Assembly: GCA_016932785.1 (NCBI GenBank)
Contig: JAFGCJ010000002.1
Span: 337,777 to 401,776, forward strand
DNA from: Candidatus Dojkabacteria bacterium
GTDB lineage: Bacteria; Patescibacteriota; Dojkabacteria; SC72; JAFGCJ01
Reading direction: 5' to 3'
Length of the DNA stretch: 64,000 nucleotides
Positions 9,101 through 46,519 of this stretch are shown here, one piece after another. Positions within the stretch are counted from its first letter, which is position 1. The number at the start of each line of letters is the position of its first letter. The position numbers and the translations under genes were made by a program. The notes beneath the pieces are model-generated. The model made no database searches. It was not told the origin of the DNA and was given only the letters and a program-made list of their open reading frames with translations.

Positions 9101-12100
9101 AGAAGCCACAATAAGGTCATCTATTGCCCCCGTTTGGATCGGAAGAGGAGATGCAAGAAATCCCTGAAGAAACTTTTTTGAACGGCTGGTCTCCCAGAAA
9201 GGAAGATCTCCCCGATCTGACGATCTAAGATTACTCCCATAAATTTCATAGGTTGCACTACTATTTATACACTGATCCGGATCAGATGCCTCTTGTTTAT
9301 CTATTGATATAGCATAACTTAAGCTTTCATTTGCCAGTACATTAAGATCTACAACTGAACCCGATCTCCTCCATTGATTAGAGGTATTTACCTGATCAAT
9401 TTGCGGATCAATTTTATCGATAACAACAGTCTTGGGATCTATAGATTGAGAAGTATTCAAACCAAGAGTAGCAAAAACGTCCAGTGGAATAGTATAAACA
9501 CTTGTATCCGGACTGCTGTAATCTGGCACCGTAGAAACATCTACATTACAATTCCATATGCCTACTGCGCTGGCTGTCGTAGAACATATAGTATTACCTG
9601 AGTTATCCTTGACTTCAATTAGTGCCCCAGGATCGCTTGCTCCTTTTATCTGAATCAGCTTACTATTTGAATAAAAGATATCGTTATAATAATTAGTATT
9701 GGAAACAATTCCACCAACGACCTTATCAATATCTAAGATAATCGGGGTTAAAGGAATATTTCCGTCAACAGTAAAACCGGCTGTAAGACTTTGGACCTCT
9801 ACATCAAGTTTACCCTCGAATTTGACTTCATAAAGTCCCTGAAGACTAGATGGTAAAGGATAGTAAAAATCCCATGTACAGGTGGTACTGTTACATGCCG
9901 TGTAAGGTGTCGTACCATCAACAAATATTTTGTATAACTTAGTAACATTGTCTCCTGTAATATAACCGATATTATTCCAGTCAGTACTCGATGGGAGCAC
10001 GTCAACCATTGAATGATCCGCAAAAGATAATCGCACCCGTTCAGTTCCCTGGTAAACAGTAGACCGCATAATCACATACCTTAAAGCATCAATATCAGCC
10101 TGAGTTATATCTTCTCCGTTATCTAATTTATCAAGAATTGCCTGATATGCAGCAGGATCGTTCGTACCGGTGAGAGCCGGAATTATCTCGACATTTTCAA
10201 ACGGAGGATTTGATGTCGTAGTGACTTTTACCTGGTTTGAAGGAGGAGTCTCATTTCCGTATTTATCCAAGGCAGTCGCAGTAATATAATGCTCATCCTG
10301 AGAATTTACCCTGGGCAGCATAACAATTGTTGAAAAGAAACCGTTATCATCAACCGTGGTATAGTATTCAGTGTCACACTCACCCGAAATGGCCATCGTA
10401 TCTACACAAATCTTGACCTCAAGCATACTGTCAGTTCCTGTATTTGTCGATACAAGCGAAAGAGGTGCCTGGCCTTGAACATTGATAACTCCGCGACTGG
10501 AGTAACTATCATTCTTGGGATAAGTGATGACGACACTATCTGAAAGCTCTGTTGCTGCATATAAACTTGCAGGAGTTGTTTCAAAGTTAATCCCATCTGT
10601 AGTTAACACTTTCAATTGATAAGTATAGGTACCATCACCAACAAAATTGCCTCCAGTATCTCTGCCATCCCATGGGATACTATTAGGTGGCGTCCCCCCG
10701 GCAGTGAAAGATCTTACAACATTTCCGTCTGAATCTTTTATCTCAAGTTCATAGGTATCTATCTGACCATTTGTTGAAATATCTGTAAAATTCACTCCAT
10801 CCTGATTACCATCTCCATTCGGTGAAAAATACTCTATATCCGTATTAAGCGACAATGTTACAGCGAAAAGATCAACATTTACGGATATGGATTGACTGGA
10901 AGTATTTAGGCCAGTCGACGGATAAACATCGGCATTGTCTTTCGTATCTACTTGTATCTGGTTCGTGACATTACCTGGTGTTACAGTGTCCCTTTCTAAC
11001 TGGAAATCTACAACAGACCAATCACATATTTCTTTAATTCCATCAGTCTCAGGACTACCACTCGCATGACAGCTCGTGACTTCTACCCTGGAGGGATTTG
11101 AGACAGAATCAGAAACATCAAATGTCTCACTGTCTACCAATCCATCACCATCCAGATCCCCCAAAGGCAAACTCAAGTCTATCTGAGAATTTTTCTCAGC
11201 AGTTCCAGTAAGCTGAATTTTCGAATAATTAAATAGATTTCCTTCTGACGGAGAAACAAGATCGCTTTGAATATTGCTGTCTAACTCAAAATATTCAGTA
11301 CTATCAATTGCGGAGGTACCTGCTACATCGCTCGCTCTGGTAGTAATAGTATAGTCTCCATCAGGTGTCAGATCTGACGTAAATACAAATTTATAAGTAC
11401 AGGAAGGAGCACCGGAATTACCATAATTTCCAGGACCATCACACGTTTGCTGGATATTCCCCAAAGACGGCTGTGTGTTTACCCCATCATTCGCAAGCAC
11501 AAGCTCGCCGTTAACCGGATGCGTCAATGAAATGAAGAGACTATCGGAATCAATACCCGAGATGTACTCATTACTTCCGTCATCATATCCAGTATCTGAA
11601 AGGCTCACGGTAACCTCAGGTTTTCTATTGTTATTCAGATCGTCTGGAGAGACAGAATCAATTGAAGGAGCTGACCGTTCCTGGTAGTAGCTCACAACAA
11701 CCTGATTTGTGTTATGAACATAATCAGTAACATCGAAAGTGAACGTATTGGCTCCAAGAAGCAACGTGTCATCATAAGAGAATAGACCAAGACCGTCGAG
11801 AGTTAAAGCTGTCTGAACACTACTCTGATTGTTTGTAATACTTGCAACAGCATCAGCCTCCGTTTGTCCGTTTATAGTTATATCACTATCATTAAACCAA
11901 CTCCCGGACACCGGGGTAGAAATATTAATATCTGCGGGAATATTATCAACAATAACCACATTGGAATCGTCAACTTCTTCGTTACCAGCCTTATCGGTTA
12001 CACTGAGTCTTAGCGTATACGGACCATCCGGAACAAATGCACTACTGTTATCCCGCCCATCCCAAACAAATTGATGGGAAACTGGAGTTTCTGATCCTGC

Positions 12101-13384
12101 TGGAAGAACATCGGTAATTGTTCGTACAACATTGCTACCTGAATCGAGTACCTCCAGCCTTGTATTGTCAGGATATTTCTCCTGCCAATCAAAATCTACT
12201 ACCGAGTCATCAAACTGGCCATCTTGATTTTGAGGAGAAATCCTCTCATTTGTTACAGAGACTCCACTCACCAAAGGAAATACTGAATCCTGAGTTGAAG
12301 ATACAGAGGAGCTCCATCCCCCAGTATTATAAAGACGATCCCGCGCACGAACACGATAATAATATTCCACATCATCAGTCAAAGAAGCAAAGGTATAGCT
12401 GTTTGTATCAACCCACCCAGATGAACCATCCGGCGATCCAAACGCTGGATCATCATCCATCTGAAAATTGTATTGAATTCCACCGATAAGATTATCCGAC
12501 CCGGCGGTGGAATTAACACCATTCTGAGTACCGGCCGTGAATTCAGGTTCCGAATTCATACTAACTCCAGTCGGTGCAGTAGTATCAACAACAAACGATC
12601 TCCATCCTGTATAGGTACTACATTCATCAGTTGTATCACAGTTCCTGGCACGCCAAGTCCAATGACCATCCGACAAAGTACGATTCCTGGTATACGTTTG
12701 GTCGTTTGAATTAAGAGTCTGATTGTAGTCGAGATTCCCACCTTCATTCTTTCTTACCTGAGATTCAAGTCTGATCCACTGATAGAAGTCAGGATCAAAA
12801 GACCGAGTAACAAAATCCACACTGCACCCCTGTCCTGTCCCAGAAGTATTACAGGTAACTCCGCTATATGCGGCATTATTTCTAGGACCCATCTCCCAAA
12901 GGCTCTGCGGTCTAATCATACTCGGTTGATTGGGCGGCTGATTATAGTTCTCAGCAAAATCAGCAACTTCAAGAATCGAGAACCAGCTCGTATGCCAATG
13001 AACCCACGCTATGACCTCATGATTTGTTAGTGCTGCGGTATTAACATTATCACAGAATCTATAATAGTAGCCTCCAGGATAAACTATCCTATTCGTAGTC
13101 CAGCAACTCGCCGCCTCACTCCACTCGACCCAAGGTTCATATGTACCCCTTATATAACAGATGTTATCGCCAAAATCCGGTGAAAGCTCGCCACAATCAG
13201 GATAGTCAAGTGTTGAGTAAGCTTCTACTGGATTCAGCTTGGCTGAGCTAAGAAAAATACCTCCATATGATGTAAACAACATAACAAAAAGGAGAAACAA
13301 GACACGGAAACGACCCCAAAGCCTTTTAGAGGCTAACTTTCTAAGAAAAGGGGCAGATATAGTAATATAACTATGAGGTTTCAT
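6128..13384 (-). CDS. Giant (2,418 aa) secreted/surface protein: Cys/Trp-rich N-domain, Fn3/Ig-like and FlgD-Ig-like modules, M23 (LytM) peptidase domain, terminal HExxH domain
   Basis: Uninterrupted 7,257-nt ORF with an N-terminal signal/anchor. Fn3-type signature YYYRVRARD..N. FlgD-Ig-type units (FSPNGDGNQDG...WDGRD...GDGTYTY). M23 core HGGVDF (7763-7780) and THLHFGVY (HLHF at 7466-7477). HELAH at 6437-6451 and EDWAES at 6218-6235. Confidence 0.9.
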   Translation of the reverse strand: MKPHSYITISAPFLRKLASKRLWGRFRVLFLLFVMLFTSYGGIFLSSAKLNPVEAYSTLDYPDCGELSPDFGDNICYIRGTYEPWVEWSEAASCWTTNRIVYPGGYYYRFCDNVNTAALTNHEVIAWVHWHTSWFSILEVADFAENYNQPPNQPSMIRPQSLWEMGPRNNAAYSGVTCNTSGTGQGCSVDFVTRSFDPDFYQWIRLESQVRKNEGGNLDYNQTLNSNDQTYTRNRTLSDGHWTWRARNCDTTDECSTYTGWRSFVVDTTAPTGVSMNSEPEFTAGTQNGVNSTAGSDNLIGGIQYNFQMDDDPAFGSPDGSSGWVDTNSYTFASLTDDVEYYYRVRARDRLYNTGGWSSSVSSTQDSVFPLVSGVSVTNERISPQNQDGQFDDSVVDFDWQEKYPDNTRLEVLDSGSNVVRTITDVLPAGSETPVSHQFVWDGRDNSSAFVPDGPYTLRLSVTDKAGNEEVDDSNVVIVDNIPADINISTPVSGSWFNDSDITINGQTEADAVASITNNQSSVQTALTLDGLGLFSYDDTLLLGANTFTFDVTDYVHNTNQVVVSYYQERSAPSIDSVSPDDLNNNRKPEVTVSLSDTGYDDGSNEYISGIDSDSLFISLTHPVNGELVLANDGVNTQPSLGNIQQTCDGPGNYGNSGAPSCTYKFVFTSDLTPDGDYTITTRASDVAGTSAIDSTEYFELDSNIQSDLVSPSEGNLFNYSKIQLTGTAEKNSQIDLSLPLGDLDGDGLVDSETFDVSDSVSNPSRVEVTSCHASGSPETDGIKEICDWSVVDFQLERDTVTPGNVTNQIQVDTKDNADVYPSTGLNTSSQSISVNVDLFAVTLSLNTDIEYFSPNGDGNQDGVNFTDISTNGQIDTYELEIKDSDGNVVRSFTAGGTPPNSIPWDGRDTGGNFVGDGTYTYQLKVLTTDGINFETTPASLYAATELSDSVVITYPKNDSYSSRGVINVQGQAPLSLVSTNTGTDSMLEVKICVDTMAISGECDTEYYTTVDDNGFFSTIVMLPRVNSQDEHYITATALDKYGNETPPSNQVKVTTTSNPPFENVEIIPALTGTNDPAAYQAILDKLDNGEDITQADIDALRYVIMRSTVYQGTERVRLSFADHSMVDVLPSSTDWNNIGYITGDNVTKLYKIFVDGTTPYTACNSTTCTWDFYYPLPSSLQGLYEVKFEGKLDVEVQSLTAGFTVDGNIPLTPIILDIDKVVGGIVSNTNYYNDIFYSNSKLIQIKGASDPGALIEVKDNSGNTICSTTASAVGIWNCNVDVSTVPDYSSPDTSVYTIPLDVFATLGLNTSQSIDPKTVVIDKIDPQIDQVNTSNQWRRSGSVVDLNVLANESLSYAISIDKQEASDPDQCINSSATYEIYGSNLRSSDRGDLPFWETSRSKKFLQGFLASPLPIQTGAIDDLIVASDDLSQANGSFVLSGNAVEGRYCTTVEVSDLAGNSVREGQVFFVDNTSPNTPNIDTSDWGNYNGINTKPGYIAEGRLVPEFVHEENQIKVKGWSEENTNMEFYVDAKLVSTTDLVTGECAQSLASDKIADTVNVQDKDVCAYSFNYPLTKNGKDYVFQIKSVDRAGNKSIISEDEVVYYDNKRPINPEVIRTKSVSYDPTPEWRMGNQASVTKDLSINLVTHAESLSDLEFTAFGPQSFSRYIFTQTPGNQVKDQNVPLGSSSDERSGCVNMIGTRRTGVCQDGNYTVQIISTDAAGNASGLTKHTIERDTVRPEEPVIYLDKRGAIGEEYLTLSVKGEAGATAEIHVSSRYYSRVLNANLDNHGRYSTSNLIGRITCGDVLYTATVKVVDRAKNKSDSVSDSVRSGDCPACYTPGGEYSHPVHSDKVVLTSGYRTASRPDHGGVDFALLGGPEVSWREPIYPMAPGTATKVKQQGGVKGGSPNYVDVTHDNGIVSTYWHLDNDSPSVVGLGERLDNVGEKLGHMGNTGNVWSSLSGDKAGTHLHFGVYVNGKDVNPGAYIGGGSNVVCDGVPSSGGKPASATAPSGNYKDKWAGKDGNSLGKPWVNLEVTKKEGGDFDIKVKDYYIPAPEITYVTTKYNGSKAVLNGVAVYKHRKADFEVKYKSFFGKSCFIFCSNVYTDEETIKFEDELDHVGLNFREDRPWKKDQDVGWIWNDSSDGRWEKDLELDNKDKHDLNVGDKIFTQTKIWDTTKFHTNADGDVEISFTSGDEPLISDRSNTVEIKEDKKGNIGDKYGIDLVDGAGSWTDKELEWINSLLGSLPSNLYDHGHVNEFVREASHASAAASYDYTGTKNVYVYDGAMNFSGFTRYGNINQEEGYKIVITHELAHSYEEYDKASNSAKLLSEFSKISWIENMSVIYESWAIDSKAKPTTVDYTSKSITLEDFVTDYASSYSYEDWAESVAVFQFKKGTFSGGTQKLEDKEKIVDKKF

Positions 13385-13927: not shown

Positions 13928-14000
13928 AATAAAGATTTGATAATTTATCAGATCTTTAATAATTGTATCATATGGACTTCATCCTACACTCACTATTTTC

Positions 14001-14936
14001 TCACTTACTGCCTAGCGTGACTAAGTTTCTTGGCTTCCCCTTGATACAGGAGATTATAGTTTCAGTCCAGTCATTAATATTGTTTTCAAGTGACCTATCA
14101 GTATACCAAGCAAGAGGCGCCGTAATAAAAACATTACCTTTAACATCAGCCATTTTAATTTCCGCACTCTCAAAGGCTAGACCTCCAAGTTTACTCTTAC
14201 CTACTCGTTTTAATAGGTATTCTTTATCCCAAATTTCATCACTTACGATACTAACAAAGTATGAGTTACTTTTTAAATTTTCCAACATTTTTTTATCAAG
14301 TAAATTATGGGTCTCTTTCGACTCAATTACAGTAGGAAAGACAACATCGCATTTTTGCAGCAACGACTTCAAACTCAAGTACTTTTCATTTACCTTCTTC
14401 TTGCGTCTTGACCAATAATAAGTCTTCATCCCTAAACCATCAGCTAGCTTTATAATTCTTTTTCCAATATGACCTAGCCCTATAACCCCGACACTTTTAG
14501 AAGTAAGTTCATTCATAAGCGTTTCATCAGTAAATTCGTACTTGAAGTCATTCTTCAATTGAATAGGAAATCTTTTGAAAAGTGAAATCATCATGTAGAT
14601 GGCATACTCAGCAACAGCATTAGTTGAATAATATGGAACATTTGTAACCTTTACTCCTTCCGATTTACAGAAATCTAAATCCAAGAAACCATAGCTAGTA
14701 GTGACTAGACATATATACTTAACACTGTTCAAACTTTTATAGAACTCAGCTGGAATCTTCCAATCAAAAGGTACCGGGGATAACGCAACTATTTTATCAT
14801 TCTCATTACTAAGCCTATCTAGTTTACTAAGCTCAATCCTTTCATCATTTATCCACTCAACATGAGAGTATTTTTCAAGCCTATTTAGGCTTTGCTTGTT
14901 ATACTCTTCCTTTGTTGAGATTATTACAACGTTCAT
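14001..14936 (-). CDS. D-isomer-specific 2-hydroxyacid dehydrogenase family protein (NAD-binding)
   Basis: 311 aa. Rossmann fingerprint VGVIGLGHIGKRIIKLADGLGM and the overall layout of glycerate/phosphoglycerate dehydrogenase-like enzymes. Confidence 0.8.
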   Translation of the reverse strand: MNVVIISTKEEYNKQSLNRLEKYSHVEWINDERIELSKLDRLSNENDKIVALSPVPFDWKIPAEFYKSLNSVKYICLVTTSYGFLDLDFCKSEGVKVTNVPYYSTNAVAEYAIYMMISLFKRFPIQLKNDFKYEFTDETLMNELTSKSVGVIGLGHIGKRIIKLADGLGMKTYYWSRRKKKVNEKYLSLKSLLQKCDVVFPTVIESKETHNLLDKKMLENLKSNSYFVSIVSDEIWDKEYLLKRVGKSKLGGLAFESAEIKMADVKGNVFITAPLAWYTDRSLENNINDWTETIISCIKGKPRNLVTLGSK

Positions 14937-15209: not shown

Positions 15210-17495
15210 CTATTGAGGCACCTCTTCCTCGTCGGTATCTGAATTAACGGCATCATTTGATTCTCCGTTATCAGAATTTTCCTCAACATTTTCCTGAGGA
15301 AATTCTATGTCTTCACTTCCTTCAGGAGTTACTTCTTGCCCTTCCCCCAAAGAGTTTAGAGCATTAAGAACCTGAGTATAAGCATCCGATTCACCTAGCC
15401 CATTTGAATCCAGTATGTTCAGAATTATCTGCAGTTGTTCTCTTGCTCCAGAAACATTCCCCATCTTCTGATACTGCACAGCAAGATCATACCTTGCGTC
15501 CAGTAGAAGCGGTTGGAGAGTCAAAGCCCTCTTCAGTTCATCAAGAGATTCTTCTCCATAACCAGCGAGAGACAGTATCACGCCCTTCTGATGATGCAGT
15601 TGAGGTTTATAAGGGTCATACTCAATCGCTCTATTGATAGATGCCAACGCAGCATCTCCGTAACCGCCATTAGTTATCTTAATTAACTCTTGATATATGT
15701 AAATCCTGGATTCCCAATTCCTTACATTGATAGGACTCAAGTCTGTTGCCTTTTTTCCACTTTCCAAAGCTACAGAAAGCATTGTCTTCATTTCATCCTG
15801 ATAGCTAGTTTCTTCGGATTCAGATTCCATGTTCGCATATTCCTTGAGAATATTTATAGCCATCACGGCATAATCTCTCCTATAACTATCGCGATATCCG
15901 ACAGTATCAATGGCCTTTCCTATTCCATTGAATACATCCGCCATTTTTTCGATCCTATCGTCTTCATCAGATTTTATCTTAGATGCTTCATACAGCGCAT
16001 TCTGATAATAAACCTCTCCCCTGTACATCCTGTATACCCAAATACCTCCACCGAGCAAAAGAACAACCGCAGGAACAAGCATGACATACGGAAGTATATC
16101 GTTCTCTTCTACAGCAATCTTTTCCTTCGACAATGAAAGACTGAGCTTTACTTTTTCAGCTAATCTCGGGTTGGAAAGAGCTCTTAAAGCAACTGTAAAC
16201 CCGAGCATCATCCAGAGCAGGTACCAAATATTTATTGTAAAAAAAACAAATAGACTAGATATTATCACAAGAAGTATAGAAGACGACAAAGATACAAGCA
16301 TTGTATTAAAAGGAAAAACATGATTCTCCTTGTATATTCGAACCAGCCATACAACAATCATAGTAAACAGAGCACCCCATGCAGCAAGGCCTAAAACACC
16401 TGTATTACCAAGTATTTCAAGGATCTGACTTGATGATCTCGAAAACCTCATGCTCCAATTATCAGTTTCGTTATACGATTCAGGTCTGTAACGAGTAAAG
16501 TCATACGCAAAGGTATCCGGACCACTTCCCAGTAGACCGTTACCTGCCGATTTCGAAAGGGTTTCGGTAGCAATTGACCATGAAACATCATACTGTAAAC
16601 GAGGCTGATTTATGTAATCGTCGTCTCCTAACACCAAGGCATTAGAAACAGTATCCACATTCCTCACAATGAAAACCAAGACAACAAAGACCAAAATGGG
16701 AAGTAAAAACCTCACGGAGGACTTCGCAAATGATCCTGCGCTCATCAAAACCAGCACAACAGAAGCAATTAGTAAGCTCCACAGGAGTGCCCCAGGCCAG
16801 CTCCAGAAATTACCCGTCGAAATAATGAACCCACACAAATTGAACATTAGAGTGATTAGAGCAAATATAGAAGATGTAAGATTTTTTGTTTTTGATATAA
16901 GAAGACCAAAACCCACAGGTATCAATATCAAAAAGAAAAACGGAAGAACCTGATCTGAACCTACGGACGAGAAACTTCTTATTTCTGAAAATTCGTATCT
17001 TTCAAATGCAGAAAAAATATAGATGCCGAAATACTGAAGAGTCGAAATAAGACCGACCAAGGCACCCGAGATTGTTAAACCCCACATAAATAGTTCTACA
17101 ACCCTTTTAGTTTTTACAACATGCCGCAGGACAATCGTGAGCATCAGCATGAAAAAAAGTACAACAACACCCTCACTCATCCTCCCTGAAAATCCAATAA
17201 GACTGGTTATCTTATCCTCTGAAAAAACAAACGACAACAAAACCGAGGCAAAAATTGCTATAAGTCCAACATCAAAACTTGTTTTCCAAAAGCTCAGCTG
17301 CCCTTTAAAAGATATATTGACCAGCCACGCGACAAGAATAATGAGCATAAACGAAATAAATAGCATCGACTTGTTAAATTCGTAGAACTCAGAAGTGAAA
17401 GGAAGAAACATAACAGGCAAAAGCAGGGTCATAACAAAAACCCCATATTGAGTGATGTAATCAGTCACTTTTAATATTCGCGATCGCAACTCCAT
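15210..17495 (-). CDS. O-antigen ligase/polymerase-like polytopic membrane protein fused to C-terminal TPR repeats
   Basis: 761 aa with more than 10 hydrophobic helices. The periplasmic-loop motif GLLGSGPDTFAYDF is typical of the Wzy_C/WaaL family. The C-terminal ~250 aa have TPR-like repeats (AIEYDPYKPQLHHQKGVIL..., ALTLQPLLLDARYDLAVQYQKMG) and an acidic tail. Confidence 0.65.
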   Translation of the reverse strand: MELRSRILKVTDYITQYGVFVMTLLLPVMFLPFTSEFYEFNKSMLFISFMLIILVAWLVNISFKGQLSFWKTSFDVGLIAIFASVLLSFVFSEDKITSLIGFSGRMSEGVVVLFFMLMLTIVLRHVVKTKRVVELFMWGLTISGALVGLISTLQYFGIYIFSAFERYEFSEIRSFSSVGSDQVLPFFFLILIPVGFGLLISKTKNLTSSIFALITLMFNLCGFIISTGNFWSWPGALLWSLLIASVVLVLMSAGSFAKSSVRFLLPILVFVVLVFIVRNVDTVSNALVLGDDDYINQPRLQYDVSWSIATETLSKSAGNGLLGSGPDTFAYDFTRYRPESYNETDNWSMRFSRSSSQILEILGNTGVLGLAAWGALFTMIVVWLVRIYKENHVFPFNTMLVSLSSSILLVIISSLFVFFTINIWYLLWMMLGFTVALRALSNPRLAEKVKLSLSLSKEKIAVEENDILPYVMLVPAVVLLLGGGIWVYRMYRGEVYYQNALYEASKIKSDEDDRIEKMADVFNGIGKAIDTVGYRDSYRRDYAVMAINILKEYANMESESEETSYQDEMKTMLSVALESGKKATDLSPINVRNWESRIYIYQELIKITNGGYGDAALASINRAIEYDPYKPQLHHQKGVILSLAGYGEESLDELKRALTLQPLLLDARYDLAVQYQKMGNVSGAREQLQIILNILDSNGLGESDAYTQVLNALNSLGEGQEVTPEGSEDIEFPQENVEENSDNGESNDAVNSDTDEEEVPQ

Positions 17496-23994: not shown

Positions 23995-24032
23995 TACTTG
24001 AAGAATCACCCACCATATTAATCAATTGACCC

Positions 24033-24604: not shown

Positions 24605-25018
24605 TTATTTCACAGAAACAATGACCTCTCGTTCGCGAGGACGATTATCAAAGTCTACAAGGACAATCTGCTGCCAAGTCCCAAGTAGGATTTTACCATT
24701 CTCAATAGGTATCACAAGATCAGGCTTCAAAAAACTTGCCCTAACATGGGAAAATCCGTTTCCATCGCCCCACTTTTCATTATGGGCGTATTCTAAGGAC
24801 TTAGGAAAAAGCCGCTCGAATGCCTTCTTCAGATCAGATTCCAGACCAGGTTCGAACTCAATAGTGGTTATTCCTGCTGTAGAACCATTAACAAAAACCA
24901 GGACAGAACCTTCTTGAACCTTTGATTTGGATATAACAGATGAAACCTTTTCTGTAATGTTTATTATGTCACAGAAACCCTGAGTTTTAAGCTTCAGACG
25001 CTCAGTCATACTCCTCAA
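24605..25018 (-). CDS. YjbQ/UPF0047 family protein (secondary thiamine-phosphate synthase-like)
   Basis: 137 aa. GSVLVFVNGSTAGITTIEFEPG...NGFSHVRASFL...GTWQQIVLVDFDNRPRER matches the YjbQ family pattern. Confidence 0.9.
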   Translation of the reverse strand: MRSMTERLKLKTQGFCDIINITEKVSSVISKSKVQEGSVLVFVNGSTAGITTIEFEPGLESDLKKAFERLFPKSLEYAHNEKWGDGNGFSHVRASFLKPDLVIPIENGKILLGTWQQIVLVDFDNRPREREVIVSVK

Positions 25019-25173
25019 ATCGAAGTTACATACGATAATAGTTTAATATATTGACCGGCAAAATGAAAACGATATAGTCTATGGGATATTTCGTCGGACT
25101 TATACATCAAAGTTATCCACAGTACCAAAACTCTGCGCTGATTTATTTTTATAATAAAAGCGTTTCTTACGTC

Positions 25174-25202
25174 TTGACATAATCGTAGAACTCATATAGG
25201 CT
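25174..25202 (+). promoter_or_regulatory. Candidate promoter of the orphan small RNA
   Basis: TTGACA (25174-25179), then either a 17-nt spacer to TAGGCT (25197-25202) or a 15-nt spacer to TATAGG. The -10 is imperfect. Confidence 0.4.
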
Positions 25203-25204
25203 TA

Positions 25205-25323
25205 AAGATGTAGCCAGGTAGTTGAAAACTAGGTGCACGTTGGGTGAGTTTGCCTAGTACGGGATTTTAGAGGTGACTCTATTTTTCCGTCAAACCCAGA
25301 GAAGCTATCTGGCTACATTTTTT
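25205..25323 (+). ncRNA. Candidate structured small RNA of unknown class (~120 nt)
   Basis: A 14-bp closing stem pairs 25208-25221 with 25305-25318 (one G-U), immediately followed by T6 (25318-25323). Two internal hairpins: 25228-25233/25253-25258, and 25259-25264/25285-25290 capped by TAGAG-GTGA-CTCTA (GNRA loop). A pseudoknot is possible between TGGGT (25241-25245) and ACCCA (25294-25298). It lies in a 440-nt gap, on the opposite strand to both neighbours. Confidence 0.45.
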
Positions 25324-25427
25324 ATGCAGATTTCATCAGCTGAACTCTTGTGAAATATTGAATAAACCAGTATGGTCTTCAGAACCACATATCACGGTAA
25401 GGACAAAACTGACAAGAAATAATAGAC

Positions 25428-25450
25428 GGCGTCTTACATAATAAGACGCC
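25428..25450 (-). terminator. Intrinsic terminator-like hairpin after the small basic ORF
   Basis: GGCGTCTTA-cataa-TAAGACGCC is a perfect 9-bp stem. It lies 7 nt downstream of the stop at 25458, and a T-rich tract (GTCTATTATTTCTTG) follows on the minus strand. Confidence 0.6.
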
Positions 25451-25457
25451 TCTCTAC

Positions 25458-25580
25458 CTACTTCTTTCTAGAAGCTGTTCTTTTCTTGGTAGACCTCTTC
25501 TTTGGCTTAGCAGACCTCTTAGCCCTTACAGGCTTTCTTGCCTTAGTAGACCTCTTTGCAGATTTCTTCTTGGTCGCCAC
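25458..25580 (-). CDS. 40-aa Lys/Arg-rich (histone H1-like/nucleoid-type) small protein, GTG start
   Basis: My translation: (V/M)ATKKKSAKRSTKARKPVRAKRSAKPKKRSTKKRTASRKK*. Three KRS(T/A)K units match three agacctctt DNA repeats. GTG is the only possible start after an in-frame TAA, and a perfect terminator hairpin follows. Below the ORF-track size cutoff. Confidence 0.4.
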   Translation of the reverse strand: MATKKKSAKRSTKARKPVRAKRSAKPKKRSTKKRTASRKK

Positions 25581-25705
25581 TTGAAAAGAATTAAAAAGTT
25601 ATTGATAACAAATCTATACTAAACAATACAGTTGTCAATAACCCATAAAAAATCGGAAAAGAATTACGAAATTTCTAGAACAGTTGAAAAGAAGATCAGT
25701 TAAAA

Positions 25706-26340: not shown

Positions 26341-26412
26341 CCGGAGATCCGTAATTGAAGTTGTCGTGCTGGGCGGCACATGTAGAAGATTCTTCAATTA
26401 TCGGATCTCCGG
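26341..26412. repeat. Long imperfect inverted repeat (20-bp arms, 31-nt spacer)
   Basis: CCGGAGATCCGTAATTGAAG (26341-26360) pairs with CTTCAATTATCGGATCTCCGG (26392-26412): 11 bp + 1-nt bulge + 9 bp. The spacer holds a small GTGC...GCAC hairpin. No U-tract on either strand. Confidence 0.7.
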
Positions 26413-26926: not shown

Positions 26927-29900
26927 TTACTCATACTTTGGATAACAGCACTTCTTGTATTTCTTACCACTACCGCAGGGACACGGATCATTCCGTCCCA
27001 CTTTCTTACCTTTAGTTATAGTCTTCTGCTTCGAGACCTTACCAGGCCTTCTGTCCACCATTGCAGCTGTCGTCTTTGCTGCCTTATCCCCGGGGCTGAC
27101 TTTAGAGGCCTCCTCTTTCACAGCCTGAGCCCTTTCCACATCTACATCAGAGCTCTTCTTCACAACACTTACCTTAAAGAATCTTCTGACAATGTTGTCC
27201 TCCATTTGAGCAAGCATCTTGTCAAACATTGCAAACCCTTCGTTTTTATATTCCACAAGAGGATTCTTCTGAGCATATCCGCGAAGGCCAATACCATGAC
27301 GAAGATCTGTCATAAGATCAAGATGCTCAATCCAAAGATTATCAATTGTTTGCAGTATAAGAACTCGCTCTACCTCACCAATTACTTCGTCTCCCAGACT
27401 CAGGATATGGATAACATATGAGGAAATCAATAATTTGTGCAGCTCAGACAAGCGCTTCTCTACAGACCATCCGTTGGAATAGAATTTTTTCTCTAAATCC
27501 TTCCAACCTTTATAACCAATTTTCTTTGAGGCCTCGTCCGCCAGTTCTACGGGAATTACATCAAGAACTCCGGCCAAAACCTTACGTTCCTCAAGATCGT
27601 CAACTTTCGAGTCATCCCGAACCTGAGAACCAATAATAAAGTCAATATGTTGAGCCGCAAGCTTCAATACCCATAATCTCAAAGGTCGAGAAAAGATACT
27701 ACCCTCACCAAGTTCTAAAATTTTCCACGACCCCGGATCCTTAATAGAAAAGTTACTGAGAGATTGAGCCATCTCAGCAACGGCAGATTCTTTCAGTTTG
27801 GAAAAATCATATTTAATAGATTTTTTCTTAGTGTCTCCCCCCTCGGCATCTACTTTCTGTCCTGCCAGTATGGTCAGAATCTTTCTTCGCAAATCGTAGA
27901 TTATCTCCCTCTGCTGATTTAGCACATCATCATATTCAACAAGATGCTTACGGGTATCGAAATGATATGCCTCTACTCTTTTTTGTGCTGATTCTATGGT
28001 CCGTCCAATAATACCGGCTTCAATAGGTACCGAGTCGTCCATTCCAACACTGGAAAGTATTCCGGACATAGCGTTTCCACCAAATAACCGCATAAGATCA
28101 TCCTCGAAGGAAACATAGAATCTCGAAGATCCAGGATCACCTTGGCGACCGGATCTTCCACGAAGCTGATTATCAATACGACGCGACTCGTGACGTTCAG
28201 TTCCAATCACATGAAGACCCCCAAGTTCCTTCACACCATGTCCCAAGGCAATATCTGTTCCTCTACCTGCCATATTGGTAGCAATAGTAACCTGTCCCTT
28301 TTTCCCAGCTTCCGCTACTATTTTCGCTTCTTTCTCGTGCTGCTTTGCGTTCAACACGTTATGGGCAATTCCTTCTTTATTAAGCATGCTGGATAACAAC
28401 TCTGAATTCTCAACAGAGGTCGTCCCCACAAGCATAGGTTGACCTTTTTCGTGCCTCTGTTTTATTTCTTTTACAACCGCTCTAAATTTTCCCTCCTTTG
28501 TTCTGAATACAAAGTCCGGAAGATCTTTTCTTATAACAGGAAGATTCGTTGGGATTACAACAACCTCAAGATCATATATATTGGCAAACTCCTCAGCTTC
28601 AGTAAGGGCCGTCGCCGTCATCCCTGAAAGAAAATCATACAAACGAAAATAGTTCTGGAAAGTAATGGTCGCCAAAGTTCTAGATTCCTTCTTGATCTCT
28701 ACACCCTCTTTTGCCTCTATAGCTTGGTGCAATCCTTCACTGTATCGCCGTCCTGGCAAAACACGACCAGTAAATTCATCAACGATTAGTACCTGATTAT
28801 CCTTAATAATGTACTGATCATCCTTGGTATATAGCTCCTTGGCCTTGAGTGCATTATCAAGATGATGAACTTGTGCATAATTTTCCCAGATATTATCAAC
28901 TGAAAGTATCTTCTCCACTCTATCCACTCCCTCGTCAGTAAGAGAAACAGAATGGGCCTTTTCATCAACCAGGTAATCCTGAGGCGGCTTTAGCTGCCTC
29001 GCGACATTTGCAAACTGGAGGTACATTTCATTTGAGTCTTGGGCTTGAGAAGAAATAATCAGAGGAGTTCTAGCTTCATCGATTAGAATAGAGTCACATT
29101 CGTCGACAATAGCAAAATAAAGAGGCCCCTGAACTCTCTGACTCAACGAATGAGCCATATTATCCCGAAGATAATCAAAACCAAACTCATTGTTGGTGCC
29201 ATAAATAATGTCACAGGCATAGGCTTCTGATTTACTACACCTTTGAAGATTTACTCCCGACATATGGTCATACTTAAGCCGGCCAACCTCCGAGCGAAGC
29301 TTTTCTCGCTCTTCAATTTTCTTCTGGGCTTCGTCTCCTTTCAGATCAACAGCTTCTTTGTCAGTAATAAATTTGTAGGCCGCCCCTGGAGTAATAACGC
29401 CAACCTTCATACCCAGAGCACCATATATGTGTCCTGCCCATTCACCGTCTCTTCTTGCAAGATAGTCATTTACGGTTACAAGATGAACACCTTTACCCAT
29501 CAAAGCGTAAAGAAAAAGCGGACATGTAGCTACAAGCGTTTTACCCTCTCCAGTAAAGTGTTCTATCACATACCCATGAGCCTGAAATATACCCGCCAAA
29601 ATCTGAACATCGAAATGTCTATGATTAGTCTGACGCCTTGAAGACTCTCTCACTCTTGCATATATTTCTGGAAGAATCTCCAAAAGCCTTTCCCTATCAT
29701 CTTTCTGCCGCTTATTCTTTTGTTCTTCTGTTAAGGCTGGAAGAAAAGGATCTCTCTCCCTTCTTGATTTTTCTAAGTCTATACCCAGTTTTTTCCTGAA
29801 ATCCTCAGCTGTTTTCATTAGCTCAGTATCAGAGAGCTTCTGAACCGACTCCTCAAGACCATTAATCCCCTCAACAATAGGTTTGAATTTCTTTAGCTGT

Positions 29901-29941
29901 CTCTCATTGGAGTCAAAGAATTTTGATAAAAAATTCAGCAT
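26927..29941 (-). CDS. secA: Preprotein translocase ATPase SecA
   Basis: The ATG at 29941 gives MLNFLSKFFDSNERQLKKFKPIV, the canonical SecA N-terminus; the ORF-track start at 29995 adds 18 atypical residues. Walker A FTGEGKTLV, DEAD-like IVDECDSILIDEARTPLIIS, and a C-terminal zinc finger CPCGSGKKYKKCC. Confidence 0.95.
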   Translation of the reverse strand: MLNFLSKFFDSNERQLKKFKPIVEGINGLEESVQKLSDTELMKTAEDFRKKLGIDLEKSRRERDPFLPALTEEQKNKRQKDDRERLLEILPEIYARVRESSRRQTNHRHFDVQILAGIFQAHGYVIEHFTGEGKTLVATCPLFLYALMGKGVHLVTVNDYLARRDGEWAGHIYGALGMKVGVITPGAAYKFITDKEAVDLKGDEAQKKIEEREKLRSEVGRLKYDHMSGVNLQRCSKSEAYACDIIYGTNNEFGFDYLRDNMAHSLSQRVQGPLYFAIVDECDSILIDEARTPLIISSQAQDSNEMYLQFANVARQLKPPQDYLVDEKAHSVSLTDEGVDRVEKILSVDNIWENYAQVHHLDNALKAKELYTKDDQYIIKDNQVLIVDEFTGRVLPGRRYSEGLHQAIEAKEGVEIKKESRTLATITFQNYFRLYDFLSGMTATALTEAEEFANIYDLEVVVIPTNLPVIRKDLPDFVFRTKEGKFRAVVKEIKQRHEKGQPMLVGTTSVENSELLSSMLNKEGIAHNVLNAKQHEKEAKIVAEAGKKGQVTIATNMAGRGTDIALGHGVKELGGLHVIGTERHESRRIDNQLRGRSGRQGDPGSSRFYVSFEDDLMRLFGGNAMSGILSSVGMDDSVPIEAGIIGRTIESAQKRVEAYHFDTRKHLVEYDDVLNQQREIIYDLRRKILTILAGQKVDAEGGDTKKKSIKYDFSKLKESAVAEMAQSLSNFSIKDPGSWKILELGEGSIFSRPLRLWVLKLAAQHIDFIIGSQVRDDSKVDDLEERKVLAGVLDVIPVELADEASKKIGYKGWKDLEKKFYSNGWSVEKRLSELHKLLISSYVIHILSLGDEVIGEVERVLILQTIDNLWIEHLDLMTDLRHGIGLRGYAQKNPLVEYKNEGFAMFDKMLAQMEDNIVRRFFKVSVVKKSSDVDVERAQAVKEEASKVSPGDKAAKTTAAMVDRRPGKVSKQKTITKGKKVGRNDPCPCGSGKKYKKCCYPKYE

Positions 29942-29950
29942 AACGAAGTG

Positions 29951-29959
29951 ATTATAACA
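29951..29959 (-). promoter_or_regulatory. Extended -10 (TGTTATAAT) 9 nt upstream of the secA ATG
   Basis: The minus strand reads TGTTATAAT-CACTTCGTT-ATG, with no Shine-Dalgarno in between. Confidence 0.45.
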
Positions 29960-30030
29960 TGCATAGCAATCATTGCGGGATGAAAAATATGTCAAAACCG
30001 AATTTTAAGAATTTTTTAATCTCTCGAGTC

Positions 30031-30042: not shown

Positions 30043-33000
30043 ATGAAAAAAATCACTTTATACTTATGCCTATCCGTAACTATTTTCCTTATATTCAGCA
30101 AACAAGACTCCATCGCCAAGATTCAGCACGTCGACATACGTTCAGACACCTATGTTGAGGAAATGTATCCTACAGTATCTCCATGGAACAACAAGAATCT
30201 CTATATCGGGAAGGACACATGGTATGGGAAAGGGAAGACAAGAGCATACGTAAGAGCAGATCTCACTGGGTTGGAGAATCTCGGAATTATCGGTAGGGAC
30301 ATCGTCAACGCTAACCTATACCTTTACCAATACGAAAATGAAGGAAACTCCCCCTACACTTTACTCGCGTTCCGTCCAAAAGAGAACTGGAACGAACGCT
30401 TAGTAAACTGGAGCAATCAACCTAATAATCTTGAGCAGATTTCATCAAATTCCCAATCAAACTCGAACGGATGGAAGAAGATAGATATTACGAAATACGT
30501 AAAGAACGCATTGGACGATGACCTTAATTACGGCGTCAACATAAAACTTAAGACTGAAGATTCACCAGCAATAATTTTCTGGTCAACAGCCTGTGTCGGG
30601 ACACCAACTCCACCATCATGCAATCCAACCGAAAAACCTTATGTCCAGGTAGAATTCACTCCCAATGCGCCTCCAAACCCACCTGTTCTCCTCGATCCGC
30701 AGGATGATATTTTCCTTCAGGCAGGACTCATCCACTTTGAAGCCAACTCTTCTACCGATCCTAATGGCGAAAAAATACAGTATCGGCTAGAAATATCAAA
30801 ATCCGACAGCTTCGAAACACTAATATATAAAAGCCAGCTTTCAGATATACCAAGATTTGACTATACCCTGTCGGAAGAATCCAAGTATTTTTGGCGCATG
30901 GCGTCAATAGACGAGCACGGAGAAATCTCGGGAAAAACGTATTCAGAAACAAGAACATTCTTTATAGATAAAACACCTCCAACAGTACCAATAATAGATC
31001 CCGAGCCTCCATTCACAAACGGCACCGAAAATACAATCACCTGGTCAAGTTCCTCAGATAATTATGCAAAGACAATCACATATAGAGCCGAGATAAGCGA
31101 GACAGAGGACTTTAGCAAGAATGTCAACTCATCGGAATGGTTGACTGATCTTAGTACAAAGTTCACTAACCTAGAGGACAACAAACACTATTATTATAGG
31201 GTAAAATCACGCGACGATGCAAAAAATACATCTGAATATTCATCCGTTGTTTCTTCAACACAGGACAACAACCCGCCGCAGATCAAAGACTTTCGCCTAA
31301 GCACGTCATTGATCTCACCATTTAACCCATCAAGCAAATCAGTTCGCGACTACACAGAAATCAAAGGTAAGATCGAAGATCCCACCCTAAGATCATGGAA
31401 ACTACTAGTAGTAGATCAGAACCACAAGAATGTATCAACACTTAAAGCTGAAAACAATGTTTTTTCATTCAGCTGGCCACAGGACGATTCCCGAATTTCG
31501 AAATTATCAGATGGAAAATATTTCGCTTACATCAATGCAACTGATAGCTTCGGGAAAACAATGAATTCCAAATCGCTGGAAATAACAATTGATGATACGA
31601 GCCCAGCTACTCCTACTATTGAAAATCCAAAAAGCGAGTCATACTCAAATTCCCACTCAATAACTCTTATCTCCAAAGTCGAGAAAAACACATCAAACAA
31701 TATATATCTAAACGATATTCTACAGGCTCGAAGACTAGCTATTAGTAAGATATCACAAGACATCAAAATACCTAAAGACGGAAAACACTCAATAAAAGTA
31801 GAGTCCCTCGACGAAGCAGGCAACAAAAGTTCAACCACTGTTACAGTAAATATTGACACATCGCCTCCTAACGCGCCAGAAATAGAGTTACATCCAGACT
31901 CAAAAGCCAATTCTATTTCTATAAGTATTAAAGGCGAGAAAGAGACCACTGCAAAAATCTATATTAACGGAAAACTCACAAAATCTTTCACGCATACCGA
32001 TAATAAAAAGACAGACATTGTAAAAAAATGGACAGTCAACCAAGAGTACAAAGTTTTCGCGACACTTGTAGACAGGGCTGGAAATATAAGTCCCAAATCA
32101 AAAATAAGAAGCTACAAAACTCCGGACTCAAATGTTCTTGGTACCGGAATGGGCTTTGGAGACATAACCAACTATCCCAAGGCTCCCAAGATAAAGACCT
32201 GCACCATTAAGGTTCATAAAGACAGGAAAATATACGACATAAAAAACTGTAACATATCCGCACCATCACTTGCTGAAATAGAAAATAGAGGTAAAAATGG
32301 CAACATATACTGGCTAACACTGTACGGATCAGCACAAAAGAAACTCAAAATTAAACTCGAGAAATACAGATGCAAGAAAAAAAGCATCTTCGATCCAAGA
32401 ACCTGGTTTTTTTGTATAGATCAAAAATACAAACAGGAAACCAAGACGGTAACACCAAGACTCGAGATAATCTCTAGGCTAAGTAATGGCAAAGAGCTGT
32501 ACGAGTACAAAAAATCAATTAATACGAAAGGCAATTTCTACTCAGACGACTACACCTGGTACGATCCAAACAATAAAAAAGTCTCTTCAAAAAGTATCCT
32601 ATCAGGTTATCTTAAAGTTGAAGGTATATGGATAGACTATCAATACAAAAGTGGAAAATCTAATAGCATCAAAGTACCTAAGGAGTCCAAGAATAGTGGA
32701 AAATACTTTTCTTTTGTATTCAATGAAATTATAGGCGTAACTCAATGGCATGGTTATACTGCATACCAAAGCCCCCATACAGGAATAGACTTCGGGGCAG
32801 TAGAAAAAAAGATCATTTCACCAGCAAACGGTTATATCCGAGCGGTTGGATGGGATAGTTATTACGGCCAATGTCTTTCCGGAGGAAATTACATACGAAT
32901 CGAACATGATAACGGCATGCACACTGTCTATATGCACCTGAAAAACTACACCAACAGCCAGGGGAAAAAATGGAAAGTCGGGCAAAGAATTCTCCGTGGA

Positions 33001-33210
33001 CAACAGGTGGGAATCAGCGGAAACTCAGGAGCATGGAACTGCCAACCGCTCGGATATCATCTACATTTTGAACTTAGAAAAAGCAGAAGTCAATCCACCC
33101 ATCTAAATCCTGTCCCCTACATAGACATTAATTGGAACCTCATACACACAATCGGCTCTCAAAATAATCCCGGCAGACTAACTGGCGATAATCCACATCC
33201 AAGTTATTAA
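30043..33210 (+). CDS. Secreted 1,055-aa protein: DNRLRE/CBM96-like N-domain, Fn3/Ig-like and FlgD-Ig-like modules, C-terminal M23 peptidase
   Basis: Signal peptide MKKITLYLCLSVTIFLIFS. DNRLRE-type pattern (DTYVEEMYP...RAYVRADLTGL...ANLYLYQY...ENWNERLVNWSNQP). Fn3 signature YYYRVKSRDDAKN. M23 core HTGIDFGA (32776-32799) and HLHF (33058-33069). Confidence 0.9.
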   Translation: MKKITLYLCLSVTIFLIFSKQDSIAKIQHVDIRSDTYVEEMYPTVSPWNNKNLYIGKDTWYGKGKTRAYVRADLTGLENLGIIGRDIVNANLYLYQYENEGNSPYTLLAFRPKENWNERLVNWSNQPNNLEQISSNSQSNSNGWKKIDITKYVKNALDDDLNYGVNIKLKTEDSPAIIFWSTACVGTPTPPSCNPTEKPYVQVEFTPNAPPNPPVLLDPQDDIFLQAGLIHFEANSSTDPNGEKIQYRLEISKSDSFETLIYKSQLSDIPRFDYTLSEESKYFWRMASIDEHGEISGKTYSETRTFFIDKTPPTVPIIDPEPPFTNGTENTITWSSSSDNYAKTITYRAEISETEDFSKNVNSSEWLTDLSTKFTNLEDNKHYYYRVKSRDDAKNTSEYSSVVSSTQDNNPPQIKDFRLSTSLISPFNPSSKSVRDYTEIKGKIEDPTLRSWKLLVVDQNHKNVSTLKAENNVFSFSWPQDDSRISKLSDGKYFAYINATDSFGKTMNSKSLEITIDDTSPATPTIENPKSESYSNSHSITLISKVEKNTSNNIYLNDILQARRLAISKISQDIKIPKDGKHSIKVESLDEAGNKSSTTVTVNIDTSPPNAPEIELHPDSKANSISISIKGEKETTAKIYINGKLTKSFTHTDNKKTDIVKKWTVNQEYKVFATLVDRAGNISPKSKIRSYKTPDSNVLGTGMGFGDITNYPKAPKIKTCTIKVHKDRKIYDIKNCNISAPSLAEIENRGKNGNIYWLTLYGSAQKKLKIKLEKYRCKKKSIFDPRTWFFCIDQKYKQETKTVTPRLEIISRLSNGKELYEYKKSINTKGNFYSDDYTWYDPNNKKVSSKSILSGYLKVEGIWIDYQYKSGKSNSIKVPKESKNSGKYFSFVFNEIIGVTQWHGYTAYQSPHTGIDFGAVEKKIISPANGYIRAVGWDSYYGQCLSGGNYIRIEHDNGMHTVYMHLKNYTNSQGKKWKVGQRILRGQQVGISGNSGAWNCQPLGYHLHFELRKSRSQSTHLNPVPYIDINWNLIHTIGSQNNPGRLTGDNPHPSY

Positions 33211-45438: not shown

Positions 45439-46519
45439 GAAAAACACCCTTTACTACTTCATAGAAAAGTTTGATAAACATTATCTGACTAAAAACATCG
45501 GTATATTTGCAAAATACCTTAGCAATGATTTCAATATAGAATTCATTTCATTAAAAATTACCTCAGATCTAAAAGGTGTCCCCTACGTAGTAACCAAAAT
45601 ACCCTTTATAAAGCTGCTAAACAATCAGATTTACTTTCCATGGAAAGTGCTAATCAAAACAAAGAGAAATGACGTGCTCTGGGCTTACCCCGGACATTTC
45701 GGTGCGTTTGTAGCCATGGTTATATCTAGAATAAAAGGCTCCATACTACTTCTAAAAAGCGACTCCTTTCCTCTCTTCAAAAACATCAGAAATCCACAAA
45801 ACTTGCAAAACAAAATCAGCAATTACTTGCTCTACAGACTTCCAATTCGAGCTTCTAACATAATAATCGCCGAAACAAAGTCTACCAGAGACTTTCTTAC
45901 CCAAAGATGGCATATAGCTGAAGAAAAAATAGTCATGGTTCCAAACGGAATAATTCTGTCCGAATACAAAAAAATTGATAAATCGCTAGGAAATATACAG
46001 AGAAACAAATCTATCCTCTACCTCGCAAGAATTACTAAAACAAAAGGTTTTGATTTATTTATAGAGGCCATCAAGAAATTCAAAGACGAATACCGAATAG
46101 ATGTAGCCGGACCCGTAGAAGAACCTGAGATCTTTAATAAATATAAGAATGTTTTTGACCACCCTACCATTAACTATCACGGCCCTCTCTACGAGAAAGA
46201 TCTTTTCCGAATGCTAAAGAGATCGTATATTTTCGTAAATTCATCTAGAAGCGAGGGGTACAACAATACAATACCAAAAGCTCTATTTTTTGGATGCAAA
46301 GTTGTAGCTACCAACGTTGGCGAGACAAGAGATATTCTAAAAGACGGAGAATTTGGGATTCTATGCAAACCGGAGAAGGATCATCTCGAAGCTGCAATAG
46401 AAAAATGCATTGACTGGGATCCGGACTGGAAAGGAATACGCAAATACCTCTCCAATGAATTGAACTGGGAGAAAAATATAATTCCACTGAAAAGATCAAT
46501 TAAAAATTGTATGAAATAG
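45422..46519 (+). CDS. Glycosyltransferase family 4
   Basis: 365 aa with a GT-B C-terminal motif: NSSRSEGYNNTIPKALFFGCKVVATNVGETRDILKDGEFGILCKP. Confidence 0.8.
   Translation: MASQIKKNTLYYFIEKFDKHYLTKNIGIFAKYLSNDFNIEFISLKITSDLKGVPYVVTKIPFIKLLNNQIYFPWKVLIKTKRNDVLWAYPGHFGAFVAMVISRIKGSILLLKSDSFPLFKNIRNPQNLQNKISNYLLYRLPIRASNIIIAETKSTRDFLTQRWHIAEEKIVMVPNGIILSEYKKIDKSLGNIQRNKSILYLARITKTKGFDLFIEAIKKFKDEYRIDVAGPVEEPEIFNKYKNVFDHPTINYHGPLYEKDLFRMLKRSYIFVNSSRSEGYNNTIPKALFFGCKVVATNVGETRDILKDGEFGILCKPEKDHLEAAIEKCIDWDPDWKGIRKYLSNELNWEKNIIPLKRSIKNCMK

Follow-up and report, generated by a model that had tools for sequence, protein, structure and literature searches.

The window, by which we mean the whole 64-kb stretch of DNA analysed here, is ordinary chromosome and carries the POR operon, orn, yjbQ, secA, recO, iPGM and RF-1 together with genes for glycosyltransferases and large surface proteins. 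Its SecA gene (26927-29995, - strand) finds its best named matches in Candidatus Dojkabacteria (Patescibacteria/CPR), and the nearest SecA among 5.8 billion proteins shares just 73% identity with it. Among the scanned ORFs of the 64 kb, we found no reverse transcriptase, Ro/TROVE, Cas, integrase or transposase domains. Neither phage genes nor CRISPR arrays nor tandem repeats were found in the window. In two giant predicted surface proteins (6128-13384, - strand, 2418 aa; 30043-33210, + strand, 1055 aa), Ig-like repeats and CBM96 occur together with an M23 peptidase domain; these may be cell-wall-lytic proteins of an episymbiont, and the M23 protein adjoining SecA is kept in relatives. In another part of the window, the POR and orn operons converge with a gap of 38 nt between them, and transcription from each may run antisense into the other.

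The element considered here lies in an intergenic gap of 439 nt (25019-25457), within a compact genome. The gap is bordered by yjbQ on one side and by a small basic ORF on the other, both on the - strand. A preliminary description had given its length as 440 nt; all the coordinates which that description assigned to the candidate RNA agree with the sequence and, in line with its statement that no ORF is present, the structure contains none of at least 30 aa. The gene downstream is the convergent 40-aa basic ORF, no + strand ORF follows, and no + strand gene was found within 1.2 kb upstream. The signals and structural parts of the element, in order of position, are the following.

25051-25078, + strand: alternative upstream promoter-like site, TTGACC-16-TATAGT, 10 of 12 positions (consensus match only)
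25174-25179, + strand: -35 box TTGACA of the proximal candidate promoter (read from sequence)
25197-25202, + strand: -10 box TAGGCT, after a 17-nt spacer (read from sequence)
25204-25223, + strand: P1, 5' arm of the 20-bp closing helix, the transcribed part probably beginning at ~25208 (fold)
25224-25227, + strand: J1/2, junction GAAA (MFE and centroid structure)
25228-25258, + strand: P2, hairpin with an 8-bp stem (two G.U) and an apical loop of ~13-15 nt, CACGUUGGGUGAGUU (fold)
25259-25290, + strand: P3, hairpin of 6 bp, a symmetric UUU/UUU internal loop, 5 bp and a GUGA tetraloop (fold)
25264-25293, - strand: opposite-strand promoter-like site inside P3/J3-1, TTGACG-18-TAAAAT, 10 of 12 positions (consensus match only)
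25291-25302, + strand: J3/1, 12-nt single-stranded C/A-rich junction, CAAACCCAGAGA (fold)
25296-25312, + strand: local alternative hairpin before the T6 tail (also flagged)
25303-25322, + strand: P1, 3' arm of the closing helix (fold)
25318-25323, + strand: T6 run, U-tail of an intrinsic terminator, overlapping the last P1 pairs (sequence)

The convergent neighbour deserves a word of its own. The basic ORF (25458-25580, - strand, 40 aa) encodes three KRS(T/A)K repeats and belongs to a unit spanning 25428-25638, with TTGACA-16-TAGATT as a strong promoter and a hairpin of its own (25450->25428) as terminator. The ORF begins with GTG, lacks a Shine-Dalgarno sequence and has not been recorded as a called gene; an exact look-up of its 40-aa protein likewise returned nothing on record. 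Either a tiny basic protein of an unusual kind or a further non-coding unit would fit.

The promoter of the basic ORF is of the sigma-70 type, like those of the two tRNA units: the tRNA-Val and tRNA-Lys genes have TTGAGA-17-TATAAT and TTGATA-16-TATATT. Since these promoters are good examples of the type, the sigma-70 consensus applies in this host, and the proximal site of the element can be judged against it. Its -35 box is perfect; TAGGCT matches TATAAT at 3 of 6 positions, T1, A2 and T6 among them, and is a weak -10 box. Motifs of the form TTGACA-N16-18-TANNNT are not enriched in the window (4 found versus 2.8 expected over 128 kb, both strands), and the motif is informative only through its position, 6 nt before the helix; we estimate the chance of such a motif within 10 nt of the helix at ~2e-4. 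From the usual distance between the -10 box and the start, the RNA is predicted to begin at ~25208-25210. Its 5' end is nevertheless uncertain, because the -10 box is weak and the + strand promoter-like site lying 120 nt upstream scores higher than the proximal one. If that upstream site were used, it would give a transcript of ~240 nt with the terminator unchanged. The - strand site inside P3/J3-1, if active, would give yjbQ a 5' UTR antisense to the 5' half of the RNA.

The fold, computed on 25200-25325, consists of one dominant structure, a three-way junction. The preliminary description had proposed a 14-bp closing helix, and the 14-nt arm ATGTAGCCAGGTAG (25208-25221) is indeed complementary to CTATCTGGCTACAT (25305-25318); that length was an understatement, however, since P1 extends to 20 uninterrupted pairs (25204-25223/25303-25322). 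Three of these are G.U pairs, which form on the + strand only. The two inner hairpins described within the helix, one of them capped by a GUGA tetraloop of the GNRA type (25273-25276), and the run of the 3' arm into T6 are borne out by both sequence and fold. The loop of P2 has, by prediction, two options: it can form a 3-bp CAC/GUG helix or join a pseudoknot.

This fold is far more stable than expected for its composition. Its MFE of -50.7 kcal/mol compares with -28.9 +/- 3.3 in 200 dinucleotide shuffles (z = -6.7), and the candidate RNA ranks first of 6388 when the stability of 120-nt sliding windows on both strands of the 64 kb is corrected for GC. P1 is the longest helix of the window (Watson-Crick and G.U pairs, arms at most 150 nt apart); none of 40 random 64-kb Markov-1 sequences reached 20 bp, their maxima being 13-19. 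The structure is also well defined, the MFE pairs having a mean probability of 0.93 and the ensemble a diversity of 5.9. Finally, the stability is strand-specific: the energy is -50.7 kcal/mol on the + strand versus -32.2 on the - strand, and the six non-Watson-Crick pairs, each a G.U on the + strand, would all be A.C on the other. Imperfect pairs that are without exception G.U, and on the + strand alone, bear the mark of selection on a + strand RNA, not of a DNA palindrome.

Two other helices of the window may be mentioned. A second long inverted repeat at 26341-26412 is near-perfect over 20 bp, CCGGAGATCCGTAATTGAAG ... CTTCAATTATCGGATCTCCGG, and lies in a 170-nt gap that separates two - strand genes of 126 aa and 140 aa. 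In stability it takes second place among the 120-nt windows of the 64 kb; either strand can fold (z -3.3 and -5.4), and a clear U-run is lacking. The second longest uninterrupted helix of the window (18 bp, Watson-Crick and G.U pairs) is found at 45785-45846 on the - strand, inside or at the end of the glycosyltransferase cluster.

A tertiary contact between the P2 loop and the junction had also been suggested. TGGGT in the P2 loop (25241-25245) is complementary to ACCCA in J3/1 (25294-25298), and this pairing can be extended to 6 bp (25240-25245/25294-25299). The duplex would bring -9.3 kcal/mol, while disrupting the 3-bp apical helix costs +3.6, so that the pseudoknot is energetically plausible. 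The complementarity itself lies only marginally beyond chance, as 112 of 2000 shuffles (5.6%) equal it. We regard the pseudoknot proposed earlier as plausible, not as established.

We compared the element with known RNA families by querying the 4227 models of Rfam 15 with sequences of 481 nt and 136 nt, both at the gathering cut-offs and, with filters as lax as possible, at E <= 10. No family reached its gathering score for the candidate RNA. At E <= 10 the output was junk only (isrD, mir-71, SNORD110, DLEU2_5), with 15-17 bits against cut-offs of 37-64. The earlier comparison, which found no match to tRNA, 4.5S/SRP, 6S or common riboswitch cores, agrees with this cmscan-type check, where nothing credible appears even at E <= 10. 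Because CPR RNase P RNAs are often too diverged and fall below the Rfam cut-offs (Lui et al. 2021, PMC8172020), the motifs of the families were also checked by eye. In the literature, we found no described CPR sRNA of a comparable kind.

The search for homologues in relatives relied on a single-sequence covariance model, R1, built from the candidate RNA. Around eight SecA homologues, nine loci were collected, which represent seven distinct relatives, with ~10-20 kb per relative and a SecA identity to the host of 66-73%. SecA and one or two small lineage-specific genes are kept in most of these loci, and tRNA-Val comes next in the four loci where a tRNA-Val was found. Past the 3' end of tRNA-Val(CAC) the DNA is different in every relative examined. 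In L085, the closest relative with enough sequence, a convergent 302-aa gene begins 26 nt after tRNA-Val; in L082 a DUF87/TrwB-like gene follows, and in L084 Bax1-I and an S8 peptidase. The fact that no two relatives agree here marks the region past tRNA-Val (24605-25705) as a hot spot for rearrangement or insertion.

yjbQ itself fits into this picture of a variable region. The search of protein records returned no close homologue of YjbQ, none being above 66% identity. The matches in genome contigs reach at most 64% identity and are scattered across many phyla, which suggests that the yjbQ of the window was acquired horizontally. An exact YjbQ look-up returned only a 100% identical contig from the same organism.

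With model R1, we detected no homologue in the SecA-syntenic loci of the seven relatives, even with the filters off on seven loci, and none in 80 yjbQ loci from other phyla. On the window, only the element itself scores, and weakly its reverse strand. nhmmer and blastn of the RNA against 84 loci gave no match, nor did blastn against phage and plasmid records. A metagenome scan for the putative pseudoknot strands, GTTGGGTGA-N35-55-AAACCCAGAGAA, gave 8 matches, all attributable to chance, and three viral pattern scans gave chance matches or none; R1 scored none of the sequences picked up by these pattern scans. Altogether, no homologue was found in the 110 fetched loci (~1.2 Mb by our sum). The sole other copy is on the Logan contig L088, 100% identical over 6 kb and hence from the same organism, whose DNA is present in sequencing run SRR13394437; a second copy was found neither within the 64 kb nor in the fetched loci. 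A 25-nt similarity between the promoter region and 17367-17391 lies in coding sequence, and we put it down to chance. Likewise, when targets of J3/1, the P2 loop and the P3 apex were looked for in the 64 kb, only self-antisense was found.

Over a distance of roughly genus to family, the element therefore appears not to be conserved at its syntenic position and, with no homologue found, there is no covariation to be read. The preliminary description had announced that lack of conservation or covariation of the helices in relatives would speak against the RNA, and taken literally this is the outcome; the relatives are distant, however. At a SecA identity of 66-73%, with a one-sequence model of short reach and only ~10-20 kb seen for each, absence from them is weak evidence.

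How can these observations be reconciled? The reading that we favour, with moderate confidence, is a lineage-restricted sRNA of ~114 nt with transcription of its own, in which the long terminal helix would serve both to protect the ends and to stop the polymerase. An independently transcribed structured sRNA had already been proposed. The position of the promoter before the helix, the stable strand-specific fold and the U-run speak for it, and the lack of a homologue and of covariation against. The case made here from sequence and computed fold supports an orphan sRNA candidate, a putative lineage-restricted bacterial sRNA gene. On the other hand, the suggestion that it is possibly a new class draws no support beyond the missing database match, no homologue having appeared in the loci searched. 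It could still be the first member of an unrecognised class of compact, pseudoknotted, end-closed CPR RNAs, whose other members have diverged or moved too far for a single-sequence model to find, for example protein-bound scaffolds, trans-acting aptamer-like RNAs or small ribozymes; we see this as a long shot.

For the favoured sRNA, we infer transcription and both RNA ends from the signals listed above, and propose the following course of events. The RNA gene would be 25208-25323 on the + strand, the polymerase starting ~6-8 nt after TAGGCT and producing an RNA of ~114 nt. This RNA would adopt the three-way junction, its first and last 15-16 transcribed bases pairing as P1, and P1 with the U-run would serve as intrinsic terminator. 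A paired 5' triphosphate end and a paired, U-tailed 3' end should, from what is generally known of RNA decay, resist 5'-end-dependent and 3'-exonucleolytic degradation; P1, by burying both ends, might thus make the RNA long-lived. The P2 and P3 hairpins would stand on the P1 stalk, and a pseudoknot could form between J3/1 and the loop of P2. We take these two segments as the probable working surfaces; they may either be locked as a compact fold bound by a protein or ligand, or be freed to pair with a target RNA. In view of the closed ends, the GNRA loop and the possible pseudoknot, we lean, by pure inference, towards a folded regulatory or scaffold RNA bound by a protein or ligand rather than a seed-pairing sRNA.

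Alternatively, the element could be a branched intrinsic terminator or transcriptional insulator, the RNA product of which has no function. P1 and U6 would halt + strand transcription before it enters the basic ORF and tRNA-Val in antisense. That transcription would come either from POR read-through across orn-yjbQ in antisense or from incidental promoters in the AT-rich divergent region. Between orn and the POR delta (ferredoxin) gene that converges on it, 38 nt (23995-24032) are free of any terminator hairpin, so that the candidate element is the next strong stop on the + strand. Relatives also provide comparable objects. In L084, a cloverleaf-shaped element (15297-15368) with a 14-bp closing helix, three hairpins of 4-6 bp and a U-run lies just after the Bax1-I gene; this branched element, too, has no Rfam family match. 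In L082, a hairpin of ~45 bp followed by U6 lies at a gene 3' end (13975-14090). Perfect intergenic palindromes of 14-22 bp are found in other Dojkabacteria contigs (L016 ~4550-4600, L081 7063-7103, L110 14447-14474). Branched or oversized terminators and very long intergenic hairpins thus seem to be a habit of the clade, and it is these branched hairpins with U-runs at the 3' ends of genes that keep the plain-terminator reading alive. As a separate observation, the palindrome of L081 directly follows tRNA-Val.

The L084 and L082 terminators resemble the candidate in their long closing helix, sense-strand G.U pairs, small inner hairpins and immediate U-run. They differ in standing directly after a protein gene of the same strand, whereas the candidate has a promoter-like site and no upstream gene; sequence similarity between the candidate RNA and either of them was not detected. 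As expected of an intrinsic terminator, a stable helix (20 bp) is followed by a U-run (T6), but a 79-nt branched interior takes the place of the loop, and helix closure across 79 nt would make for inefficient termination. Nor does the element stand at the 3' end of a gene-encoding unit: with no + strand gene within 1.2 kb upstream, only read-through of the POR operon could use it. Moreover, a terminator can do without a promoter 6 nt upstream whose -35 box is perfect and whose -10 box is correctly spaced, and without two well-formed inner hairpins, a GNRA loop and a complementary pair of loop and junction. All considered, we find the terminator or insulator unlikely, though it is the main rival of the sRNA reading.

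A further possibility is that the element works at the DNA level as a palindrome, or is a relic in a variable region, with no RNA function. It could be a MITE-like element, a recombination or integration scar by tRNA-Val, or the decaying terminator of a lost gene. The interval past tRNA-Val that differs in every relative examined, a yjbQ without close homologue whose matches are scattered over phyla, and the terminal inverted repeats of 18-20 bp borne by the element are all consistent with such an origin. A MITE would share these inverted repeats; within the 64 kb the element is a single copy, and no copy was found in any fetched locus. We saw no target-site duplication in its flanks and no direct repeat of the tRNA-Val 3' end, the mark of an att site, and no integrase or transposase was found in the scanned ORFs of the 64 kb. 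Above all, the six imperfect pairs, all of them G.U on one strand, argue for selection at the RNA level. Both the palindrome and the relic, in any of its variants, are in our opinion quite improbable.

The promoter-like sites of the region allow yet another reading, in which the RNA forms a cis-antisense pair with the yjbQ-orn mRNA and the two transcripts regulate each other. In one version, yjbQ would be transcribed from the - strand site (25293->25264), with a long 5' UTR fully complementary to the 5' half of the RNA; in the other, a + strand RNA starting at 25085 would overlap a yjbQ UTR starting at ~25144. Both the - strand site and the upstream + strand one (25051-25078) match the consensus at 10 of 12 positions, but these are consensus matches in AT-rich DNA, where 1.5 kb yielded 13 sites, and with the - strand candidate that lies nearer (25180->25151), the UTR of yjbQ would not overlap the element. 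Antisense action does not, besides, require an elaborate fold, and we hold either version to be very unlikely. As to a highly diverged housekeeping RNA (4.5S/SRP, 6S or Y RNA) missed by the Rfam models, the size and closed 5'/3' ends that 4.5S and Y RNAs have in common with the candidate and the precedent of the CPR RNase P RNAs cited above speak for it, but it is most improbable, given that no such family appears at E <= 10 with the laxest filters, that the SRP helix-8 motifs, the 6S bubble and the Y RNA T-loop are all absent, that relatives should carry such an RNA and none was found there, and that no Ro/TROVE gene was found among the scanned ORFs of the window.

To our knowledge, almost nothing has been established on regulatory RNAs in CPR/Patescibacteria, whose genomes are tiny and encode few recognisable regulators. 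A validated stable structured sRNA would open an entry point to them. The present value of the element is that of a well-defined candidate for metatranscriptome mapping, as a single-genome prediction and not a discovery.

Comparison with known systems helps to place the candidate sRNA. 4.5S/SRP RNA, 6S RNA and YrlA share with it a comparable length, a long helix joining the 5' and 3' ends and an independent gene; the candidate differs from them in having no helix-8 loops, bubble, T-arm, bulged Ro helix, nearby rsr or conservation. SRP RNA is a single long hairpin with the symmetric and asymmetric loops of helix 8 and a GGAA-type tetraloop. The candidate is a three-way junction without GGAAG/AGCAGC motifs or helix-8 loops, and matches neither SRP form (4.5S, Bacteria_small_SRP) in Rfam. 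6S RNA is a rod of ~150-200 nt with a large central bubble mimicking an open promoter. The candidate is ~114 nt long, branched, devoid of a central bubble and again without Rfam match. In bacterial Y RNAs (YrlA), whose genes are linked to rsr (TROVE), the terminal helix is bulged and binds Ro, and a tRNA-like module carries a T-loop. Here P1 has no bulge, neither ARAGORN nor Rfam finds a tRNA-like module, and no TROVE domain is present in the ORFs of the window.

Several other systems were rejected. Around its three-way junction, the hammerhead ribozyme has a conserved core made up of CUGANGA and GAAA, as well as a UH cleavage site. A type II hammerhead could claim the GAAA of J1/2, but J3/1, CAAACCCAGAGA, has no CUGANGA box, and there is no Rfam match. 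Retron msr-msd regions have terminal a1/a2 inverted repeats and a reverse transcriptase gene directly downstream; terminal repeats are present here, yet the ORFs of the 64 kb contain no reverse transcriptase domain. A reading as attC was discarded too, core motifs or partner genes being missing. The structure cannot be a leader, since the next downstream gene is convergent; besides, P1 is itself the terminator stem, and no riboswitch family matches. Purine-type and related three-way-junction riboswitches share with the candidate the P1-P2-P3 layout and a possible tertiary contact of the P2 loop, but they precede a gene of the same strand, which is lacking here, and a 20-bp P1 fused to the terminator cannot switch. 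The pRNA of phi29 (RF00044), also of ~120 nt, has its three-way junction set on a long helix of the 5' and 3' ends, and its loops are complementary. The likeness is architectural only; the complementary partner in the candidate is a junction strand and not a second loop, and a phi29-type pRNA was rejected for lack of an Rfam match, of phage genes in the 64 kb and of similarity to phage records.

A conserved RNA class is recognised by homologues with covarying pairs, and the 110 loci yielded none. A stand-alone sRNA gene is recognised by its own promoter, a discrete transcript and a terminator; here promoter-like and terminator signals are at the right places, and the transcript is a prediction. 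With generic genes of this kind, which have a sigma-70 promoter, ~100 nt and a Rho-independent terminator, the candidate would share its arrangement as an intergenic promoter-to-terminator unit, the lack of an ORF, a length of ~114 nt and restriction to one lineage. It departs from the classical base-pairing sRNAs, which expose a seed, often at the 5' end, and finish on a short local terminator, in that both its ends would be locked in a duplex of 15-20 bp.
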